Below the pieces are notes generated by a model. The model saw nothing but the letters and a program-made list of their open reading frames with translations, was not told the origin of the DNA and did no database searches. Positions 11,567-37,397 of a DNA stretch of 64,000 nucleotides are shown in pieces. Source of the stretch: a virus; the IMG/VR virus record IMGVR_UViG_3300022872_000001, positions 128,171 through 192,170 of that record; one strand, written 5' to 3'. The stretch's first letter is position 1; every line of letters starts with the position of its first letter. Both the position numbers and the translations under genes were made by a program.

Positions 11567-12007
11567 ATGGAACATGTACAAGTACCAGAGGGATCCGTAT
11601 CAATCCCACTCAAGGCAGGTGAACCCGAAGGACCTCAGGTTATCATACCTAACTTCGATATGTCGAAAGTGAATGTTACCAAAGTTGTTTTGCAAATGAA
11701 GCATCCTGTCCAGGTGAAACCAAACGGAACTCGGAAGCAACGGCGTACCATCCTTAAACCTTTCATGCTACGCTGGATAGGTACACTGGATACAGTAGCT
11801 GAACTGAAAACCAAGATGAGCAAGGCTAAGGCCGGTGATGTATATTACGTCAGGGAGGCAAAGCTGAACTACTTCTGGCATCCTCATCCTACGGAATACA
11901 TGTCAGCCTTTTTAGGTGTGACTTTGCGACCTACTGTGGATAATGGTGCTATCAAATCCTGTGAAGTAACCGTTCATATGGATGCTAAAATAGGAGTTGA
12001 TAGCTAA
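11567..12007 (+). CDS. Hypothetical protein
   Basis: 146 aa; directly abuts the previous stop. Confidence 0.55.
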   Translation: MEHVQVPEGSVSIPLKAGEPEGPQVIIPNFDMSKVNVTKVVLQMKHPVQVKPNGTRKQRRTILKPFMLRWIGTLDTVAELKTKMSKAKAGDVYYVREAKLNYFWHPHPTEYMSAFLGVTLRPTVDNGAIKSCEVTVHMDAKIGVDS

Positions 12008-12371
12008 CATGACAGCCAGTATCGAAGGTCTTTACGTAGGTTCTACCACTTTCAAGATTTTCGGAGAGATTCCGCCTGATAGGTTTGAGCAGGTAAGAGA
12101 GTTAGCTTCCTTGATAGGTGCGGAGTGTGGTAAATTCCTAAAACTAGACCCTCGGACGCGTTCCCATGTAGCCAAGGAAGCCAGTGATTATCTCAAAAGG
12201 ATTCACTGGCTTCCTTTGCTTGTAACGTGTGACGAGGTTAATAATCTGGTTAGCTACAAGGTGGAGAGGCGCATTGCTCCGCGTACCTTGAACATTGATA
12301 TCATGTTCGAATACAATTGCCATTTGTCAATATCCTATTCTCAAAGAGCAGATATTCACAAAAGCAATTGA
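11997..12371 (+). CDS. Hypothetical protein
   Basis: 124 aa; TTG start with SD AGGAG. Confidence 0.5.
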   Translation: MIANMTASIEGLYVGSTTFKIFGEIPPDRFEQVRELASLIGAECGKFLKLDPRTRSHVAKEASDYLKRIHWLPLLVTCDEVNNLVSYKVERRIAPRTLNIDIMFEYNCHLSISYSQRADIHKSN

Positions 12372-28717: not shown

Positions 28718-29993
28718 TCAGTTATTAATCCATTTGAGAATCTTATTCTTCATTTCCTGCTTTGCTCTCTTACCTGTGTGTAATTCCCAATCAGGTTTCT
28801 TAGGCGTTGAAAGGATAAAATGAGTAATAGATCCTTTGCGCTCACCTTTAACCTTACTGCTATCCTTATTAGGACGCATTACTAATAGAAGAAAAAGGTA
28901 GCCCGCTTTCACTACAGCCTTACCTTTCGATAATACCACTGGATCTACAGTTGTACCTTTTTCCAAGCCTGCCGTGTACGCACTCTTTACCTCTATATAA
29001 AGCTTTTGGTCATTGTGCCTAATACGTAAATCTGGATAGTAATAGTGCTCTACCTTGTTTTGCGTATAAATAAAATTGCGCATCTTTTCACATACCAGAT
29101 ATTTTACAGGTATCCCCCATTTTAGGAGATAGTGCATTGCCATATCCTCATATCCTTGTACCGAGAAGGTTTTTCCAAAAGCCTCCATGGAATACGTATG
29201 ATGCAATTTCTTTATATGGGCGGCATAGTGTTCCGAATTTTGCATCGGATGCTCTACACCATAATTACGCAAATACGTATCCACCACACGCTTTCGGATA
29301 GTAGGGCTTGAACTTGCATTATCGAACCTGTATCTCTTTTGATTGGTATTTCTTGTCTTCTCTTTTAATACAAAGGACTGCATGGAGTTTTCTGCTCCGT
29401 ATCTTTCCACCATGGTTATTTTGGCTTTCTTCATGGTTTCAGGATCCTGAAACGGTACCCTATACTTACCTTTGGTCCTGGCGAGTACGGTTTGTTCTTT
29501 TTTGCGTTTAACAAGGGAAGATTGGCTAGCGTTCCTGCGTAGTGTTTCGCATCTTAGCTTGAACTTTGGCGGATTGCGCCGGACGCCTGACACCCAATTT
29601 CTTAAGGTTGGTAGCTTCTACCTTCTTCCGAACCTTTGTGGATTGGGTAGGCCACTTACAGCCACGCCTTGCCAGATTAGTTGCTTCTTTCTTCGCACGA
29701 ATTACGGGAGAATTCTGTACACAAGAGGTAGAGCAGTATTCCTTCCAACCTAAATCTAACCTGGCGAAACCCACAGGCCCCTTGCAGGTGACGCAGGTGG
29801 ATCTTGCACTGGGATTAAGGTATTGGTATAGGTGCTCTGCCTTAATAACTGCAACCTTAAATTTCTCCTGTAATTTAACCAGAAGTTTTGGATTGTGCGC
29901 ATCTAAGTATCCGTGAGGTCCGAAGTTCCGAGGTGCTGCCTCACGGATCTTAAGAATCTTCTTGTACAGCTTTTGTTTTTCTACCGTATTCAT
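28718..29993 (-). pseudogene. Frameshifted free-standing homing endonuclease (HEG3)
   Basis: 29526..29993 holds RYG/NxxQ-type repeats and stops at QER*; the next frame continues NASQSS...RYGAENSMQ...YYPDLRI....YIEVKSAYT (PD-(D/E)xK). Confidence 0.7.
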
Positions 29994-30043: not shown

Positions 30044-30870
30044 CTAAACTGAGTCCACCCAATCCGTATATTTGAACGTAATTGCCAGAGAAACGATGTT
30101 GGTACTCCCTCCGTCCATTGCGACCTCACCCATAGTCTGCGGATATAGACCAGACAGATTCACCGTACGGACTACCTCAGGTATATCATCATATACGACG
30201 ATCTGGCCAGATACCTTGTATGCGGAAGACAAGGTACCTGAATTATTACGCCATGACCGAATAGCTTCCATCCAGGCACCAAACTTCGCACGGGTACCCC
30301 AGTCATTTGTTTCCAGGAAACCCATTTGTATGGAATGGGTATAAATCTTACGACCTGGGAACGGAACAGTTACACCATGCAAGGCTACGTCCAAATCCTC
30401 GAAGGCAGTACCTGGTAATTCAAGAGTCTGACATTTGAAGGTCAGATCACGTGTATCACTAGAACCTGGAATAGCTGGCAGAAAAAGATCAAAATTCCCA
30501 CTTATGTTCCGCATTAGTCGTTACACCAATGCGCGCCTTTAGGCAGCTCTAGCTTTCACTAGAAGGTCAGACTATATCTTCACCCTGAGTAGCAGGGGCT
30601 TCCTATTTCCCGCCACTTGGCGGTACGGCTTGCGCCTAGTCGTTGAACCTTCCGCTGTTCGCGGCTTGGCTGCTGATTGCCCAATCCTAAAGTTTTTCAA
30701 ACCTTCGCGCTCACCTATATTTCAAGGTCACGCTGTGGTACTTATAGGCTCTAAGGGGTTTCCAGCAATTAAGGAAAATTTTACTGCATCATTACTAATG
30801 CAGGTCGCAGAATTTACGACTGTGCAGGATCAGGTAAACTCTGAATATCAAAAATGCTAGATCGAGCCAT
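30044..30870 (-). CDS. Tail tube protein, spliced: join(30816..30870, 30044..30498), 169 aa
   Basis: SD AAGGAG + MARSSIFDIQSLPDPAQS-T|GG-NFDLFLPAIPG...LPG...FPGRKIY...VNLSGLYP; 55+455 nt restores the frame; T4 gp19-like motifs; downstream of the sheath. Confidence 0.88.
30499..30815 (-). ncRNA. Group I intron, ORF-less, 317 nt
   Basis: P AATTGCTGGAAA (30759-70), Q GCAATCAGCAGCCAAG (30665-80), R GGTTCAACGACTAG (30636-49), S GAAGATATAGTCTG (30568-81); P1 CAGUCGU/GCGAC(C)UG with U.G at the 5' site; P10 AAAUUCU/GGAAUUU; terminal G. Confidence 0.93.
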
Positions 30871-30882
30871 ACTAGAACTCCT

Positions 30883-32112
30883 TTAATTAGTTAATATATT
30901 CTGAATAAAATTGTTCACACAGCCTCTAATGCTACTGGGTTTTTCCAGATACCAATTAGAAGCTAGGAAGAGAAACGCATCTTGTTTCTTCCTTTTGATG
31001 TGAATAATCCAACGTACTTTGTTACCACTGTCGCAGGCAATTTGGGCCTTCCTTCTATTGGTTTTTAGATCGCCTTCACCACGCCCTCCTATGTCAGTTT
31101 TACCCCGTCCCATAAATGTCCAAGGGCTTTTGCATTCAATAAACGTATCTAAGGAATGTATATAGAAATCCGGAAATGTACGCATTTCGGAAAATGCGTA
31201 GTCTGGGAAATCTTCACTAAATTCCGTAGATATATCTTTAGCCCCATATTTTGCTACCAGCCTTTTCAAGACTTCCATAGCAGACAAACCTTGAACTTTA
31301 TACTTACGACCTTCTAGTGTAATCTCGTATATGTGCCGAGATTTACTCATTGCCTTGAGGAAGAATTTCGGAATCTGCATGGCGTAAGCTTCTCCATACA
31401 CACGTTTCAAGGTCTCTTGGCCTTTAGCGCGTATGCTTGAATTACTTAGTAAATAATCAGTACCGTATTTCTTTCTATTTGTAGAGCGCACTTTAGACAA
31501 AATCTTTTCTTGCCAGTTATCTCCATATTTCCGTTGCAAGGTTACCCGTCGCTTTTCTATCGATGCAGGACGTTGCATACCATTAGTAATTCCTTCGCTA
31601 GCCATTAATTTGGCAGCACGTTTACCGCAGATGTCCCGCTTAGGATCTTTCCACGCGATCTTATTTTTCTCGCTAATATGCGCTCTTTTGAGATCTGATA
31701 CTTTCTTTGCATGGCTTATACCGCAATTAGAGCAGGTGCAAACTTTAGAATAAGCAAATTGCTCTTTACATATAACGCAAAATCTACTTTCGATGGCGGC
31801 TGAAACGTGGCGACTAAACCCACCAAGCATACGCGGGTTACTACCAAAGAAAACAAATTTTCTGTAAAGGATTTTATTATTATAAAGCTCGCGAAAGAAT
31901 ACTTCACTCAAACTTTTCATGTTGACATGCGAGGCAGACAGCTTACAGAAAAGTTTCTTTATATAAAGCGCGTCCGATTTATTCCATTCATTACGATTAA
32001 ATCTACCGACTACTTTAGGTATAATTTCTACTTTTTCAATTAACGATTTACCCACGCAAGCAGAGTGTAGCGTTATCCTACGACTTTTATTAATCCATTT
32101 ATCTAACTTCAT
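30883..32112 (-). CDS. Free-standing homing endonuclease (HEG2), PD-(D/E)xK type
   Basis: RKYG/RVYG repeats, TFPDFYIHSLDTFIECKSPWT; start at ATG 32112 (SD GGAG); stop overlaps the tube SD. Confidence 0.8.
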   Translation of the reverse strand: MKLDKWINKSRRITLHSACVGKSLIEKVEIIPKVVGRFNRNEWNKSDALYIKKLFCKLSASHVNMKSLSEVFFRELYNNKILYRKFVFFGSNPRMLGGFSRHVSAAIESRFCVICKEQFAYSKVCTCSNCGISHAKKVSDLKRAHISEKNKIAWKDPKRDICGKRAAKLMASEGITNGMQRPASIEKRRVTLQRKYGDNWQEKILSKVRSTNRKKYGTDYLLSNSSIRAKGQETLKRVYGEAYAMQIPKFFLKAMSKSRHIYEITLEGRKYKVQGLSAMEVLKRLVAKYGAKDISTEFSEDFPDYAFSEMRTFPDFYIHSLDTFIECKSPWTFMGRGKTDIGGRGEGDLKTNRRKAQIACDSGNKVRWIIHIKRKKQDAFLFLASNWYLEKPSSIRGCVNNFIQNILTN

Positions 32113-32134
32113 TTTATCTCCACACAGATTGGAT

Positions 32135-32198
32135 GAGTTCGCGCTACTAGAAGCGGTGTGGCGCTTCGGGCTGGCCGGCCTTTTCATAGCTCGAACTC
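32135..32198 (-). ncRNA. Three-way-junction element, copy B
   Basis: GAGUUCG-A-GCUA/UAGC-G-CGAACUC stem; UGAAAA; GGC-CGGCCA-GCC; GAAGCG-CCACAC-CGCUUC; UAG. Confidence 0.55.
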
Positions 32199-32216
32199 AA
32201 AAAAAGGTTTACAGGA

Positions 32217-32279
32217 TCAGTTCCAATTCTGGGCCGGATCAGCTAGGCTCTGGATATCATAAATACTGGATCTTGCCAT
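32217..32279 (-). pseudogene. Truncated duplicate of the tail tube 5' end (MARSSIYDIQSLADPAQNWN*)
   Basis: Own SD AGGAG; 17/20 aa identical to the spliced tube N-terminus; intron-less junction; TGA after codon 20. Confidence 0.8.
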
Positions 32280-32313
32280 TTAAAACTCCTTAATAAATAA
32301 ATCAGTCATTAGG

Positions 32314-32943
32314 TTAAGCCCAAGGTGCATCGACAACTACAATGGATTTATCGATGGTAGCCACAAGGACTCCTAACGGTATAGATACGTATGCTGATTG
32401 CTTGCGAACGAAACCTCGCGACAGTAGAACGTCCTCAAGTTTTAGAGGCAGCAACAATTTATTGTTGGCTGTTACCTCACGCCTGAGACCGCATATCAAA
32501 GCTATACCAGAGGTACCTTCGACAGGATGCATTACGGTGACTTCCCGTTCCTTATCGATGATCGAATTCAGTGCAATTAGTGCATCATGGAATACCGGAA
32601 GGTAATCACCTAGCAGAGTAATTACCACGCCCCACTGGGTGTCTGTCTCTCTAATCAATACAGGCTGAACTCCGCGTTTGCTATAGAACCTGGCATCCTT
32701 CAATTTCGGATCAACCTTCCACCCTAAACCATTGAAGTTTGTGGCTTTGTACCCTAAGGTGTATAGTTCACGAGCCACAGACTCTACCGTACCTTTGGAG
32801 CAGATCGTGTGATCGACCTTATTTATTTGGTATGTCTGATTACGTTTGTTGGTTATGTTGAGATGATTCAGTTCATCACAGAGTTTCTTCGCTCGCTTCT
32901 CCGTTTCATCCCGCGATTTGAATGTCTTGGCTAACTCCTGCAT
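32314..32943 (-). CDS. Hypothetical protein
   Basis: 209 aa; SD GAGGA. Confidence 0.55.
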   Translation of the reverse strand: MQELAKTFKSRDETEKRAKKLCDELNHLNITNKRNQTYQINKVDHTICSKGTVESVARELYTLGYKATNFNGLGWKVDPKLKDARFYSKRGVQPVLIRETDTQWGVVITLLGDYLPVFHDALIALNSIIDKEREVTVMHPVEGTSGIALICGLRREVTANNKLLLPLKLEDVLLSRGFVRKQSAYVSIPLGVLVATIDKSIVVVDAPWA

Positions 32944-32977
32944 TGTTATTCCTCTTTATTGAATTTACAATATAAAA

Positions 32978-35314
32978 TTAGCACATAGATAATTCCCACT
33001 TTAACTTACCGGCATCATAGATACGATGTAAATTAAGCAATTTACAGTTTTCCCACTCGGATAAGGTAGGATCAAATGCGGCAAATGTCTTCGCTAGGTT
33101 CTCACGAGTGGTAGATTGCATCGGTCTAACATCTAAAGAACCAAACCAAACTTTATAACCTGGCTTACTTTCTGACACATTAACGAATCCTAATGTTTCA
33201 TACATATCGCCATTAAACATCTGATTATCTGAATAGCTTATTATCTTTCTAGGATTCATATCCCGAATAAATGCCTTTAGAAGCTTAGATGCCCCGCCTG
33301 GGACTCTTGTTGAGGTAACGTAACGAGTTAATTCGTAAACATCCTTAACCTTTTTAGATCCTCTATTTGACCTTGTAGTATCGAAGATCATGCAAGCAAC
33401 TACTTCGCCTTCGTAGACAAGGCAATAGGCTTTACCTGTTCTAGGGGAGCCTTGTATATGGTTATTATCAACTAGAGCCTTGACGTCAGATACATTCTTA
33501 ATCTCTATGGAACACTTACGCGCAAATACAGACGCTTTACTCATTCCCAACGTATTACCTATTAGCTGGCGAATTACTCTTTTACCTCTATGCGTTCTCC
33601 ATATGTAGTCCCATACAGTAATCAAACGCCACCCTTTACTCTTAGCCTTCTTAACTCTGTCCTTAATCAGTGATGCTGCCGTAGCCTTATCCCTAGTTGC
33701 AGTTGAATCAAAATAAAGTGTTCTTAGATCTATAGCTACCCTATACTTAGAGTAATAAACGCAGTGATTTTTTACATAAAAGGAAGGATCAATACTTGAA
33801 AGATAACCAGTAACAGAATCCTCAAAATTCTTGCGTAGGGTTTCCCCAAACTGCAAATAGTGATTGAAGGTAATATGGGAAGGAAGATTATTACTCAACC
33901 ACCATTTACCTTTTAACTGGACCCAATTCTTTTCAATCCTAACAAACCAAATACACTTTCCTCTATTTGCTTTGGCTTTCTCTAGAGAGGATTTGAGGTT
34001 GTTAGGTCCTAGTAACGTCCAAAGAGATTTGCATTCTATAAATGTGTCTAGGGATTTAATGTAAAAGTCAGGTATACCGTTAATACCTAGTCTGCGCCTA
34101 GCTTTCTTGGCAACTAAATCGAAACTAGAATACACATTCTTTAGGCCAAATTTTTCTACCAGTTTATATAACAGCTCTTCCTCGTAGCTACCTTGGACTT
34201 GGATAGTCCTACCATCAATAACAATCTGTCTAAATGATAAAGACTTCTTTAATCCTTTTAAAGCTTGCTCTGGGTTTTTATTAGGCTGCTCGTAACCGTA
34301 TATTTTTAGCCAGGTAGCTTTGCACTTATCCATAATTTCTGGATTCTGGGTAGGTGTAGGAAAACCGTACAGCCTAATGCAAGTAGCCTCAATTTGTTTA
34401 CGCAAAGAAGGTGAACCCTTCGCTACACCCCCATACCTTTTAAAAGAGGTTACAGCTACCTTGGCTTTAATTGCCTTTGATTGCATGGGGTGTTCTACAC
34501 CATATCTCTCAAGGCTTGTATTAATTCTACGCTGGATACTATTCGGGTTTTTACTATTATGTGTAAAGCCCGTACGGTCGAAATATGTTTTACAGCTCTT
34601 AGCAGTGCGTAGCTTAATATCCTCAGCAGATTTACTACGCCAAGCATCGCTTTTCTTCTTCTGGATACTAAGTTTTTCTTCTAAAGATTTATTCCTCCAA
34701 GTTTTACTAGCCTTATTACTAACTGCGGCACATTGCATAGGATTTTCAGCACCGTATCTTGCAAGATTAGTTTTCTTTTTCTTTTGACGTGTCTTTTCTT
34801 TTTGTTCTTCCGTCCGAGATTTAAACTTAACTGCTCCCTTGGAAGATATATCAGGATTCTGCGCAGCTCGTTCTACTCCATACCTAGCAAGATTTGTTGC
34901 TACTAGAGATTTATCCCTAATCTCGTACCTAATCCTATGTGCTTTATTAGGAGTTCGCAAGTCACATAGAGAGCATACGGTCTTGTGCGTAAACTGCTCT
35001 TTGCAGCACGGACATATTTTCTTGTTCAGTAAAGAAAGTAGTGTTAATTTGTTATCTACGTCTTTAGCATTTCCTGATGTAAGATACGAAACCTTTTTCC
35101 ATAATTTCCTATGGTTGGTATACAATTCACCTAGTAATTGAGATGCCCAGAATCTACCTTTAGGGTTAGTAAGATTTTTATGCAGGGTTTTAACCTGCTT
35201 TCTATCGTCAGAAGTAAACTCCGACAGGTTGAATTTCCCGGTGACTTTCGCAACTTTTAATAATCTGTCTTCTGAGGAATACTTACTTAATTTAGGGTGA
35301 TTTAAAACTCGCAT
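32978..35314 (-). CDS. Large multidomain homing endonuclease (HEG1)
   Basis: Several T.L.RYG..NP.Q repeats, IPDFYIKSLDTFIECKSLWT, eroded Vsr-like segment, Hef-like C-terminus (FARKC...NHIQG...ELTRY...GGASKLL..F...SYSD...G.MY..LGF); AT-rich; SD AGGAG. Confidence 0.8.
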   Translation of the reverse strand: MRVLNHPKLSKYSSEDRLLKVAKVTGKFNLSEFTSDDRKQVKTLHKNLTNPKGRFWASQLLGELYTNHRKLWKKVSYLTSGNAKDVDNKLTLLSLLNKKICPCCKEQFTHKTVCSLCDLRTPNKAHRIRYEIRDKSLVATNLARYGVERAAQNPDISSKGAVKFKSRTEEQKEKTRQKKKKTNLARYGAENPMQCAAVSNKASKTWRNKSLEEKLSIQKKKSDAWRSKSAEDIKLRTAKSCKTYFDRTGFTHNSKNPNSIQRRINTSLERYGVEHPMQSKAIKAKVAVTSFKRYGGVAKGSPSLRKQIEATCIRLYGFPTPTQNPEIMDKCKATWLKIYGYEQPNKNPEQALKGLKKSLSFRQIVIDGRTIQVQGSYEEELLYKLVEKFGLKNVYSSFDLVAKKARRRLGINGIPDFYIKSLDTFIECKSLWTLLGPNNLKSSLEKAKANRGKCIWFVRIEKNWVQLKGKWWLSNNLPSHITFNHYLQFGETLRKNFEDSVTGYLSSIDPSFYVKNHCVYYSKYRVAIDLRTLYFDSTATRDKATAASLIKDRVKKAKSKGWRLITVWDYIWRTHRGKRVIRQLIGNTLGMSKASVFARKCSIEIKNVSDVKALVDNNHIQGSPRTGKAYCLVYEGEVVACMIFDTTRSNRGSKKVKDVYELTRYVTSTRVPGGASKLLKAFIRDMNPRKIISYSDNQMFNGDMYETLGFVNVSESKPGYKVWFGSLDVRPMQSTTRENLAKTFAAFDPTLSEWENCKLLNLHRIYDAGKLKWELSMC

Positions 35315-35343
35315 ATTCGTCTCCTGTTTAGTGGAGTAAAAGG

Positions 35344-35410
35344 CACCATAGGTATTCTAGGGTAGCTAAACCTACCCAAAGCTGGCCGGCTCTTTCAAAT
35401 ACCTATGGTG
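35344..35410 (-). ncRNA. Three-way-junction element, copy A
   Basis: 13-bp CACCAUAGGUAUU/AAUACCUAUGGUG; UGAA; AGAGC-CGGCCA-GCUUU; GGGUAG-GUUUAG-CUACCC; UAG. Confidence 0.55.
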
Positions 35411-35419
35411 GGTACTACT

Positions 35420-35428
35420 TTATTTACT
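35420..35428 (-). promoter_or_regulatory. AGTAAATAA putative promoter
   Basis: Directly after the sheath stop, before element A and HEG1. Confidence 0.4.
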
Positions 35429-37397
35429 AGCTGGTAGATCCTGCTACACTGGCTAATGTTTCACTAAAGCTCACCCCCTGCTTACTAATCACCATTTGAA
35501 GCTGTATTTCATGAATCGGTAAAGTAGGAACGATGACAACAGTGACTACTCGGATTGCAGAATTGATATACGCCGAAGGATTGTTGCTCGAATCACTAAC
35601 AACCTTGAACGATGTAATCCCTCGCGCATTTTGAATCGCTTGCAGGTAGTCGGTGCAGGAACCTACAATCTGGCGACCTGTGAAGTCATCATTTGGTTCC
35701 TGTAATGAATACATCAAGAACTTGGAAATCGATGTCTTCATTACGTTGACGATACGCCGCACCGACAACCAGGACAACGCAGACTGTTGAGCAGCTAGAG
35801 TCTGTTGTTCCCACAGTGCAATGCCTTGACCAATGAAGGTACGCGTGTAGTTAACCTGTGCCGCAAACAATGCATTTGCTTCGCCACCATCGAATGTATA
35901 TCTCGATTTAACCACATTTACCAAACCGCGGTTCAAACCTGCAATAGAGAACGAAGGGTTAGCTACACGGTCAGTACGGGCACACAAGGCAGCAGCCCAA
36001 CCTGAGAATGGAATATACAACTGCTTACCGTTGATATTGTCATTCTCATAGACGTCAGGATTGAACAGTGCCGAGTAGGTAGAGTTCAGGTTCAATGTCA
36101 GATTACGGTAGTTCACCGCAGCCTGCCATTGCTGCGAAACTGAAGGTGTATCCAATACACAGATGCAATCACCCCGCGATTGAGCCAAGGCATCCATAGT
36201 GGTTTGCACATTTGGATCGGCCCGACCTGCGTTGATGATAGTGTTGATCGGATACAGTTGCTTATTGGAGAAAACCGCGTAAGCAGCCGCAATTTGGTAA
36301 TTGGTAGGAGCTGTACCTGAATCCCCACCTGCCATAGTGGATTGGGCTGCCGAGGTAATCGCAGGAATATCCAGCAAGCTAGGCACATTCGAAGTAACCT
36401 GAATGTACTGCGAGAATGGATTAATACGATTTTCCAGATCCGTAGCCTGGCCATTATCGTCTGTACCCAGTTCCAGTGTGCAGCTAAAGCTTTCTCTTGG
36501 ATTTGTTGCAGATACAGTAAGGTCAAATACATTGACGGTAAAGGTTGGATTCGCAGCAGCCAGATCAGCTGTACTTGTTATCGGTTGCTGAGCGATATTC
36601 GGAGTAACCCCACCTGTATCAGTGAAGGTGTATGTGCCTTGACCGATGGTAGTAATTAAACCGAACGTTCCACCCGAAACACGACCGTAGATGTTATAAC
36701 CAGTGGCAGCGCTAACTGCATCCCAAGTTAAGGTGTTGGAGTAGGTAACACCTGAACCTGCAATGGTAATCTGTACAGCACTAGATGCCAGGGTCTCAAC
36801 CAGATTTCCTGTTTGGTTACTGATTGCAGATATCTGATATTCGAAGGTACCTGGTACTAAGGTACCACCTGTACTCGCGCTGACAACTGCCAATCCGGCA
36901 GGAGTATCGATGTTGGAAGAGGTGATTGACAACGCTACATTGTTACCGTAGGAACCCTGTCCCTTACTAGGGTAGAACAAAGCAATTGAATCATTTGCAC
37001 CTGAAGGCAGTAAACCTGCCCAATCCACATCTGTAGGATCTGTAATACCTGCGCTGATAGGTAACAAACCTGTTACCTCGTTAGCACCAGTTCCTGTGCT
37101 ATACATGAGAATGGCTGAATACAGAGCACCTGTGCCTACTACACGCTGCGCCCACATTTGATTGCCTTCACTAAAGAAATCCAGTGCGCAATATACGTCG
37201 AATGAAATAGACGCATTAGGATTACCGAACTCGGTAAGAAAATCATTACCATTCGTGAACTGCAAGGGCTTATCGGAGGTACCTTGTGAACTGACAACCA
37301 ACATGCAAGCTACGGAAGAGGACGCAGACGTAATCACCTGGGACAGGTTGAATTCTTGCACGTAGACGTCGGATGCTTGCGACTGAAGAATAGACAT
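35427..37397 (-). CDS. Tail sheath protein
   Basis: SDVYVQEFNLS, FLTEFGNP, RGDCICVLD, FSIAGLNRG, LSWLSVRRIVN, EPND motifs of contractile-tail sheaths. Confidence 0.92.
   Translation of the reverse strand: MSILQSQASDVYVQEFNLSQVITSASSSVACMLVVSSQGTSDKPLQFTNGNDFLTEFGNPNASISFDVYCALDFFSEGNQMWAQRVVGTGALYSAILMYSTGTGANEVTGLLPISAGITDPTDVDWAGLLPSGANDSIALFYPSKGQGSYGNNVALSITSSNIDTPAGLAVVSASTGGTLVPGTFEYQISAISNQTGNLVETLASSAVQITIAGSGVTYSNTLTWDAVSAATGYNIYGRVSGGTFGLITTIGQGTYTFTDTGGVTPNIAQQPITSTADLAAANPTFTVNVFDLTVSATNPRESFSCTLELGTDDNGQATDLENRINPFSQYIQVTSNVPSLLDIPAITSAAQSTMAGGDSGTAPTNYQIAAAYAVFSNKQLYPINTIINAGRADPNVQTTMDALAQSRGDCICVLDTPSVSQQWQAAVNYRNLTLNLNSTYSALFNPDVYENDNINGKQLYIPFSGWAAALCARTDRVANPSFSIAGLNRGLVNVVKSRYTFDGGEANALFAAQVNYTRTFIGQGIALWEQQTLAAQQSALSWLSVRRIVNVMKTSISKFLMYSLQEPNDDFTGRQIVGSCTDYLQAIQNARGITSFKVVSDSSNNPSAYINSAIRVVTVVIVPTLPIHEIQLQMVISKQGVSFSETLASVAGSTS

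Follow-up and report, generated by a model that had tools for sequence, protein, structure and literature searches.

Introduction

In T4, the way in which homing endonuclease expression is controlled has been elucidated one gene at a time. Leader hairpins that sequester the ribosome-binding site (RBS) have been described for I-TevI, I-TevII, I-TevIII and segB of T4 and for mobE of Aeh1, and the translational regulation of homing endonucleases has been named a poorly understood area (PMC2988022). These T-even hairpins and the element analyzed here are alike in that the leader of a phage homing endonuclease gene contains a cis-acting structure that pairs with the Shine-Dalgarno sequence (SD), in that the cassettes lack a promoter and are read from upstream host-gene promoters, and in their presumed role, holding a selfish nuclease low. 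By contrast, the T-even hairpins are simple, gene-specific and without common sequence, whereas the element constitutes one portable, conserved family, in which a three-way junction and a second hairpin, putatively locked by a kissing contact, precede nucleases of unrelated folds.

In repZ of the IncI-alpha and IncB plasmids, a pseudoknot adjoins the RBS, and its pairing activates translation and depends on translation of a leader peptide. Common to both is the cis pairing of a remote hairpin loop with the stretch immediately 5' of an SD; our element differs in that the pairing takes in the SD itself and in that no coupled leader peptide with a constant register was found. In the class III preQ1 riboswitch, the aptamer contains a junction, and its distal hairpin loop forms pairs with the RBS that follows. 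The element shares this arrangement, but has no sequence or model similarity to the riboswitch (whose Rfam model was unmatched) and no known ligand, and the partner of its loop L3 is itself a hairpin loop. The RF02996 int-alpA motif is also a small candidate structured RNA beside mobile-element genes; a relationship to it is unsupported, with no match at E <= 10 for both copy regions and 20 member loci. Our best reading is that the element represents a new architecture for a type of control known from T4 I-TevI, its function being inferred.

Two copies of the element precede nuclease genes

The window, the whole 64,000-nucleotide stretch analyzed here, comes from a 192-kb viral genome. A preliminary description had noticed a layout shared by two segments of its minus strand, and both sites were verified. 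They are referred to as copies A and B, and were delimited by sequence, fold and covariance models:

35427..37397, minus strand: tail sheath gene (phrog_23, 7.6e-76)
35344..35410, minus strand: copy A, three-way junction
35410-35397 with 35357-35344, minus strand: copy A P1, 14 bp
35396-35392, minus strand: copy A J1/2, GAAAG
35391-35380, minus strand: copy A P2 hairpin, with loop CGGCCA at 35388-35383
35377-35372 with 35365-35360, minus strand: copy A P3
35371-35366, minus strand: copy A L3
35359-35358, minus strand: copy A J3/1, UA
35321..35336, minus strand: copy A hairpin P4, 35336-35333 pairing with the SD GGAG at 35324-35321
35332-35325, minus strand: copy A L4, 8 nt, its centre (35331-35326) the exact complement of L3
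32978..35314, minus strand: nuclease gene behind copy A, 778 aa, DUF7487, PD...E-x-K motif
32135..32198, minus strand: copy B, three-way junction
32198-32186 with 32147-32135, minus strand: copy B P1, one mismatch (A/G)
32185-32181, minus strand: copy B J1/2, GAAAA
32180-32169, minus strand: copy B P2, with loop at 32177-32172
32168, minus strand: copy B J2/3, C
32167-32162 with 32155-32150, minus strand: copy B P3
32161-32156, minus strand: copy B L3
32149-32148, minus strand: copy B J3/1, UA
32116..32129, minus strand: copy B hairpin P4, 32129-32126 with 32119-32116
32125-32120, minus strand: copy B L4, exact complement of L3
30883..32112, minus strand: nuclease gene behind copy B, 409 aa, DUF7487, PD-(D/E)XK type

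Each copy forms the three-way junction on its own, with fold energies of -32.2 kcal/mol for copy A (z = -4.5) and -27.7 kcal/mol for copy B (z = -4.3) that none of 200 shuffles matched, while the opposite strands reached z = -2.9 and -2.5 only. Covariance models R1 and R2 scored copy A at 80.5 and 73.9 bits, and copy B at 79.6 and 74.2 bits. As first described, P3 differs wholly in sequence between the copies, yet is fully paired in both, and P2 carries an A-U to G-C swap. The full pairing of P1 claimed at the same time holds for copy A, but not for copy B with its mismatch. The junction, initially read as UGAAA and UAG, had to be trimmed: GAAA and UA remain junction, but the outer U and G form the innermost P1 pair. 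This pair covaries across the family (U-G, C-G or G-C), so that the junction proper consists of the strands GAAA(A/G) and UA.

The distance from element to endonuclease start, given before as 22-30 nt, was measured as 29 nt for copy A (start 35314) and 22 nt for copy B (start 32112). The C-terminal part of the 778-aa nuclease matches PHROG HNH and homing-endonuclease families (Pfam, 4.3e-30; phrog_3339, 7e-79; phrog_559, 7e-49 for the protein), and the 409-aa nuclease matches Pfam at 4e-16 and phrog_3339 at 4e-8. The stop codon of the tail sheath gene lies 16 nt ahead of copy A, making this gene the likely source of read-through transcription; a promoter-like or terminator-like site was looked for between the two, and none was found. 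Copy B was also considered as part of a group I intron, and this was rejected, the intron lying 1.3 kb downstream, inside the tube gene. An intron is nearby only for copy B and one other member, with the element outside it in both cases, and no group I intron match was found near copy A or the other members.

The element defines a covarying family in large phages

The preliminary description rested on two copies only. This is true for the 192-kb genome, but covariance-model building and a scan of phage genomes recovered further covarying homologues, bringing the family to about 35 distinct members. They come from metagenomes, from contigs of uncultured phages and from a single cultured isolate, Burkholderia phage BCSR5, and form leaders of roughly 90 bases in large phages. 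The BCSR5 copy occupies 149344-149440 of MW460245.1, in the region of genes QRE00279-QRE00280. The count is a minimum, since the searches behind it, with two covariance models and a set of pattern scans, started from the P2 motif. Relatives were gathered by these DNA patterns and models, and not through the nuclease protein, a search with which returned only the query's own contigs. A single model scores members at 37-82 bits across unrelated genes. Model scans of the whole records of 19 phage genomes gave 0-2 copies each, showing that the element is not a many-copy repeat in these phages. A scan of 185,579 prokaryote species genomes with a 19-mer core yielded 33 matches, all GC-rich, scoring at most 28.4 bits and none with an L3 match; we attribute these to chance, and the family is thus not evident in cellular genomes.

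Covariation was assessed on 26 distinct rows. Paired cells amounted to 96.3%, compared with 54.7% in shuffles, and the covariation score was 0.861, against 0.181 in shuffles (0 of 500 reaching the observed value) and at most 0.143 in slid controls. Double-sided changes were observed at all 12 modelled P1 pairs and all six P3 pairs. This covariation excludes a chance origin. Within the helices, G-U outnumbered A-C by 17 to 1, indicating that G-U is tolerated and A-C is not, and hence that the folding strand is the RNA sense strand. No match to Rfam was obtained at E <= 10 (cmscan, 4227 families) with 100-nt stretches of the copies and 20 member loci, so the element belongs to no known Rfam family, and no published description was found in the literature. 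With its unrelated nucleases and its position inside the cassette, these data support the earlier inference of an undescribed structured RNA module of endonuclease cassettes.

The genes downstream of the element encode homing-type nucleases of at least four unrelated folds, GIY-YIG, HNH, EndoVII-like and PD-(D/E)XK. In locus L130, the element sits 27 nt inside a 1.77-kb insertion, placing it at the observed boundary of the cassette; the insertion is missing from L133, a nuclease-free relative, which thus has no copy of the element either. An ORF on the same strand ends 3-119 nt upstream of the element in 25 of 32 cases. Neither TATAAATA nor any other common motif was found upstream of or inside the element, and a sigma-70 promoter scan remained at background level; the phages' own promoters are unknown, which makes this a weak test for a nested promoter. 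While the T-even hairpins are relieved by a late promoter nested within them, no T4-type late promoter was found inside or before the element, and hence no release mechanism. An intrinsic terminator was discarded, most copies having no U-tract after P1 and a terminator scan being at background.

Loop L3 matches a hairpin loop at the ribosome-binding site

The whole of L3 (6-7 nt) is the exact Watson-Crick complement of L4, the loop of a small hairpin, P4, located 1-15 nt after P1 on the same strand in every copy. An exact reverse complement of L3 was present in the tail segment of 31 of 32 distinct members, and the 32nd had it with one bulge. In a 22-member control set, full-loop complements were found in 21 of 22 own tails, compared with 4 of 456 cross-member tails, 0.74% of shuffled tails and no upstream flank. 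The complement is directly bordered by a 3-5 bp stem in 29 of 31 members; in copy A, the stem is one base out. P4 covaries as well, with U-A, C-G and U-G at position 1 and A-U, C-G, U-A and G-C at position 3. Treated as a pseudoknot in a plain MAFFT alignment, the kiss was 83.8% paired, versus 37-44% in slid controls, with double changes at five of its six pairs. Different, matched L3/L4 pairs were borne by near-identical backbones (L182 and L282, L208 and L264, L303 and L293), and copies A and B also differ from each other in L3 and L4.

In all members, the L3 complement abuts or overlaps the SD, with the start codon 7-14 nt further, and in 29-30 of 31 L4 holds one part of the SD and the 3' strand of P4 the other. 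The SD of copy B, GGAG(A) at 32121-32117, is divided in this manner. P4 is of low stability (-2 to -6 kcal/mol), and for copy B RNAfold alone favours a register 3 nt away. The L3:L4 duplex was calculated at -7.8 kcal/mol in copy B and at -3.3 kcal/mol in copy A, the weakest of the family. The linker contains few Gs (13 in 285 nt), which is what an unpaired segment would be expected to show. Helix lengths correlate negatively with linker length, but the two variables share a term, and we give this no weight for geometry. Of the roles suggested before, translational control is the one supported: the L3-L4 complementarity, absent from the preliminary description, points specifically there. The G-U bias and the pairing with the RBS make an ssDNA module, also suggested, unlikely.

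Proposed function and alternatives

We propose that the element is a portable cis-acting leader that locks the RBS through an intramolecular loop-loop kiss, a reading to which we assign a probability of about 0.7 in the absence of expression, probing or end-mapping data. The element would form the 5' leader of a nuclease mRNA produced by read-through from the upstream gene. Its three-way junction, in which GAAAA, CU and UA connect the GC-rich, conserved P2 hairpin to two helices of free sequence, P3 and the long P1, would position L3 to pair, within the same RNA, with L4 of the weak 3-5 bp P4 downstream. The first Gs of the split SD, in L4, would pair with the CC that usually starts L3, and the remainder would be held as the 3' strand of P4, so that the entire RBS would be double-stranded once the kiss of 6-7 bp and P4 are in place. 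Binding of the 30S subunit and nuclease synthesis would thereby be held down. The variable L3/L4 part would provide a private match for each copy, and the leader would move with the nuclease gene as the front of a mobile cassette. The loop match to the RBS hairpin thus most likely keeps nuclease production low, although formation of the kiss in vivo, repression of translation and any opening are inferred.

Several points count against the lock. P4 is weak, as is the kiss of copy A, and the geometry is assumed, L3 having to reach L4 past a P1 of 12-14 bp with linkers down to 1 nt. Pairing of a loop with an RBS flank activates translation in at least one plasmid system, repZ. Moreover, a plain lock leaves the conservation of P2 and the junction unexplained: these parts are nearly invariant, whereas P1, P3, L3, L4 and P4 are free in sequence, and the loop CGGCCA was kept in 16 of 18 members found with that loop unconstrained. 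This conservation hints at a partner or a tertiary role. It is also the main support for a regulated switch, in which the binding of P2 and the junction by a small molecule, or by a protein of the phage or its host, sets the angle between P1 and P3, makes or breaks the L3-L4 kiss and so times the nuclease. The nucleases must be produced at some time, and promoter-based release was not found. However, there is no candidate ligand or protein, no Rfam riboswitch aptamer model matches (ligand-binding data are lacking), the conserved junctions may be purely architectural, and in L130 and L388 another hairpin takes the place of P2, the remainder being intact. We therefore regard such a sensor as possible but unlikely. 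If it were true, it would represent a new riboswitch-like class, endonuclease cassettes of unrelated folds would share one timing signal of the infected cell, and the private L3/L4 code would stop cross-talk between cassettes of one genome.

The upstream same-strand ORFs raise the possibility of a processing or stability element, whose junction would shield either the late mRNA of the upstream gene at its 3' end or a cleaved nuclease mRNA at its 5' end, the kiss merely compacting it. The single-stranded, A/U/C-rich linker would be the site of cleavage, and RNase E processing has been reported upstream of T4 segG and segB and of Aeh1 mobE (PMC2988022). We consider this improbable, since it explains neither why the RBS is the partner of L3 in every copy nor why the element is absent where the nuclease gene is absent. 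More doubtful still is a trans-acting or antisense RNA, in which the element or its opposite strand, freed as a small RNA, would pair with the nuclease RBS in trans. L3-L4 pairing would work equally between molecules, and private codes suit a cognate antisense pair, but only 1-15 nt of the same strand separate element and target in every copy, the G-U excess shows that the sense strand folds, and flanking promoter or terminator signals are missing.

A lariat-capping ribozyme sits before some intron-borne endonuclease genes. By this analogy, a self-cleaving ribozyme might free the nuclease mRNA from the upstream transcript, and the element would suit it in being a conserved junction of small size that stands immediately 5' of an endonuclease ORF and has invariant purines and a loop engaged in a tertiary contact; we give this very little credence, since the hammerhead, twister, twister-sister, pistol, hatchet and HDV-like families were all unmatched at E <= 10, the core strands of the hammerhead are missing (GAAAA, CU and UA do not fit), and the tertiary contact targets the RBS, which is unnecessary for cleavage. 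Equally remote is a feature of the DNA itself (a cruciform, a hairpin in ssDNA or a nuclease site) or a dimerization of the RNA by way of the palindromic GGCC in the P2 loop: GGCCGGCC is a palindrome, and GGCC is rarer than expected in the window (76 seen, 145 expected), but G-U pairs are tolerated and A-C are not, the element is common to nucleases of unrelated folds, and variant P2 loops (UUAGCG or 8 nt) lack the palindrome, leaving the self-kissing suggested earlier without support.

Implications of the family

The acquisition of one RNA module by unrelated nuclease families suggests that regulation is a portable part of the cassette. RNA catalogues would gain a well-supported family with four covarying helices and a tertiary kiss, and for phage annotation the element marks endonuclease cassettes and their 5' boundary. 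As a compact natural, putative intramolecular kissing-loop lock with a programmable code of 6-7 nt, it may also serve synthetic translation control. Since the cultured phage BCSR5 carries one member, the proposed lock is directly testable.

The two leader copies fold into three-way junctions

Copy A (35344..35410, minus strand) and copy B (32135..32198, minus strand), the two leader RNA copies in the window, each fold alone into a three-way junction of helices P1, P2 and P3, as the preliminary description had claimed. Their folding energies are -32.2 and -27.7 kcal/mol (z = -4.5 and -4.3), and in both cases the minus strand folds better than the opposite strand. UGAAA and UAG had been taken as junction strands, but the outer U and G covary (as U-G, C-G and G-C) and hence form the last P1 pair, leaving GAAAA (sometimes GAAAG), CU and UA as the junction strands. 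The 17-nt core common to both copies has no third site in the whole virus record. The proposed Infernal comparison with Rfam returned no family for copies A and B, nor did any of 20 members match an Rfam family, the int-alpA motif included, at E <= 10.

The 64-kb window is the final part of the 192-kb virus record. The tail sheath shares 61% identity with its counterpart in Ralstonia phage phiRSL1, and 56-59% with the sheaths of jumbo phages of Burkholderia and Achromobacter. Gene direction around both copies is the minus strand.

Features around copies A and B, in gene order
35427..37397, minus: sheath gene, first in gene order, followed by copy A
32978..35314, minus: 778-aa nuclease, after copy A
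32314-32943, minus: 209-aa ORF lying between the cassettes, matching nothing in Pfam or PHROG
32215-32300, minus: 20-codon duplicate of the tail tube gene start, just upstream of copy B
30883..32112, minus: 409-aa nuclease, after copy B
exon 1 30869..30818, intron ~30817..30499, exon 2 30498..30044 (putative limits), minus: tube gene, after the 409-aa nuclease, interrupted by a group I intron
28718-29993, minus: third nuclease (DUF7487), directly after the tube gene, frameshifted, leaving two ORFs (155 aa and 291 aa)

DUF7487, with a PD...E-x-K motif, is found in both the 778-aa and the 409-aa nucleases, the former additionally matching PHROG HNH and homing-endonuclease families. The third nuclease has no leader element, and the tube stop lies only ~50 nt away; the leader is thus common, not universal. 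The tube exon and intron limits are our reading of the sequence, set against the intron-less tube of a related contig, L130, which makes the ends of the Rfam intron match (74.3 bits, 30547-30860, minus) look offset by ~40-50 nt on each side. The duplicate upstream of copy B comprises the tube Shine-Dalgarno (SD) sequence and first 20 codons, recoded, intron-less and with a stop at its end. Together with the real tube start (30869), to which it is ~75% identical over the aligned stretch, it brackets the copy B cassette, and it resembles a co-conversion footprint left by that cassette.

In relatives, other ORFs (110-340 aa) occupy the sheath-tube interval where the window has the 209-aa ORF. GGCC and CCGG are both scarce in the window (76 and 96, respectively, vs 145 expected for each), and GGCCGGCC occurs there once, as P2 of copy B.

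Further copies and covariation

An IMG/VR scan for the core, filtered for a closing P1, added three contigs with wholly different P1 and P3. Covariance models, built from three sequences and then from six and run against phage genomes as had been suggested, yielded additional copies: canonical ones in other phiRSL1-like contigs, and a divergent one with a different P2 hairpin in L130, a sheath-gene relative. A second pattern scan gave 54 matches, representing 26 distinct rows, and a 19-mer scan of JGI metagenomes gave ~10 additional distinct copies; the same 19-mer met only chance matches, low-scoring and GC-rich, in 185,579 prokaryote species genomes. Among cultured phages, blastn detected one member (66.8 bits), a canonical element in Burkholderia phage BCSR5 (L312 2488-2553, equivalent to MW460245.1 149344-149409). 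It is flanked by a tube-like gene and, downstream, by QRE00280.1, a gene annotated as hypothetical but matching DUF7487 (4e-33). The MW460245.1 record annotates neither the intergenic RNA nor the nuclease nature of QRE00280.1. No element was found in phiRSL1, BcepSaruman, BcepSauron or Motura, and the 19 whole records searched hold 0-2 elements per genome.

Over the 26 distinct rows, standard pairs fill 96.3% of cells, vs 54.7% in shuffled alignments. Covariation scores 0.861, vs 0.181 with shuffling (0 of 500 shuffles reach 0.861) and <=0.143 when partner columns are slid by 1-3, and double-sided changes occur at all the P1 pairs modelled and throughout P3. G-U pairs outnumber A-C pairs 17:1, indicating that the folding strand is the nuclease-sense strand. 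P2 conservation is partly built in, because the P2 motif was in the search patterns. When the P2 loop was left free, CGGCCA appeared in 16 of 18 credible members among the matches listed, the other two having UGGCCA and UUAGCG, the latter resembling L130.

The P3 loop is complementary to a hairpin loop at the ribosome-binding site

The preliminary description had not noticed that the P3 loop (L3) matches the ribosome-binding site (RBS) region. Over its full length, L3 (6-7 nt in most members) is perfectly Watson-Crick complementary to a segment of its own tail, the sequence after P1, in 21 of the first 22 distinct members; the single exception requires one bulge. The matching segment lies 6-15 nt past P1 and ends in or against the SD. 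L3 complements were present in only 4 of 456 comparisons with other members' tails, in 0.74% of shuffled tails, and in none of the upstream flanks. Ten metagenome copies, BCSR5 and two P2 variants likewise carry the match. In copy A, L3 (35371-35366) matches 35331-35326 and in copy B, L3 (32161-32156) matches 32125-32120, the two codes not being alike.

Folding leaders with their tails, and then scoring all members, revealed that a short hairpin, P4, carries the L3 complement in its loop (L4). The complement is bordered immediately by 3-5 covarying stem pairs in 29 of 31 members (the stem is one base out in copy A), and the remainder of the SD forms the 3' strand of P4. When 14 leaders were aligned with plain MAFFT and the L3:L4 kiss was entered as a pseudoknot, the kiss reached 83.8% pairing vs 37-44% for slid controls, with double-sided changes at 5 of 6 pairs. 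Near-identical backbones with different matched L3/L4 (L182 and L282, L208 and L264, L303 and L293) show recent compensatory change. By itself, P4 is weak (-2 to -6 kcal/mol); another 6-7 pairs come with the kiss, worth -3.3 to -11 kcal/mol when calculated as plain duplexes.

The element precedes diverse genes and lies within a nuclease-gene insertion of one relative

The downstream ORF starts 7-14 nt after L4, and its type differs among members: a GIY-YIG enzyme (at least 10 members, one with a disrupting stop codon), an HNH or EndoVII-like enzyme, a DUF7487 PD-(D/E)XK enzyme, a phrog_559/681 endonuclease or, behind one short-P1 variant, a ParB-like protein. L130 and a related contig, L133, align collinearly as far as the end of the tube gene; past it, L130 has a 1.77-kb insertion that starts 27 nt before the element and includes the nuclease gene, whereas L133 has neither element nor nuclease gene. 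The sheath-tube spacer, 42 nt and empty in both contigs, holds both cassettes in the window. The L130 insertion (region 11690-12250) also contains a terminator-like hairpin just past the stop codon of the nuclease gene and, on the other strand, an ORF of 126 aa.

Two short-P1 (5 bp) variants recur unchanged, L150 704-755 on 17 other contigs and L151 543-592 on 7. One of them precedes an EndoVII-like gene; the other precedes the ParB-like gene and is the one member whose L3/L4 match is imperfect, with a bulge.

A putative cis-acting lock on translation

The most economical interpretation is a lock acting in cis, a function inferred without transcript or probing data. P4 and the kiss together would leave every SD base paired, and the junction may serve to point L3 towards L4. 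Because P2 and the junction are strongly conserved, a bound factor remains possible. In T-even phages, hairpins sequester the RBS of I-TevI, I-TevII, I-TevIII, segB and mobE, and a nested late promoter gives relief (PMC2988022). The inferred purpose is alike and the architecture different. Whereas the nested late promoter is a feature of the T-even hairpins, no shared promoter-like motif was found inside or before the kissing leader, so release, if any, is unexplained. Our full-text literature search, which paired homing endonucleases with three-way junctions, pseudoknots, kissing, RBS structure or DUF7487, turned up no account of such an element.

GTAAATA, absent from most other members, lies 8-12 nt before P1 in three copies whose upstream neighbour is a sheath or tube gene (window 35411-35426; L130 10488-10508; L092 6901-6926), and might represent a late-promoter-like box in phages of the phiRSL1 type.
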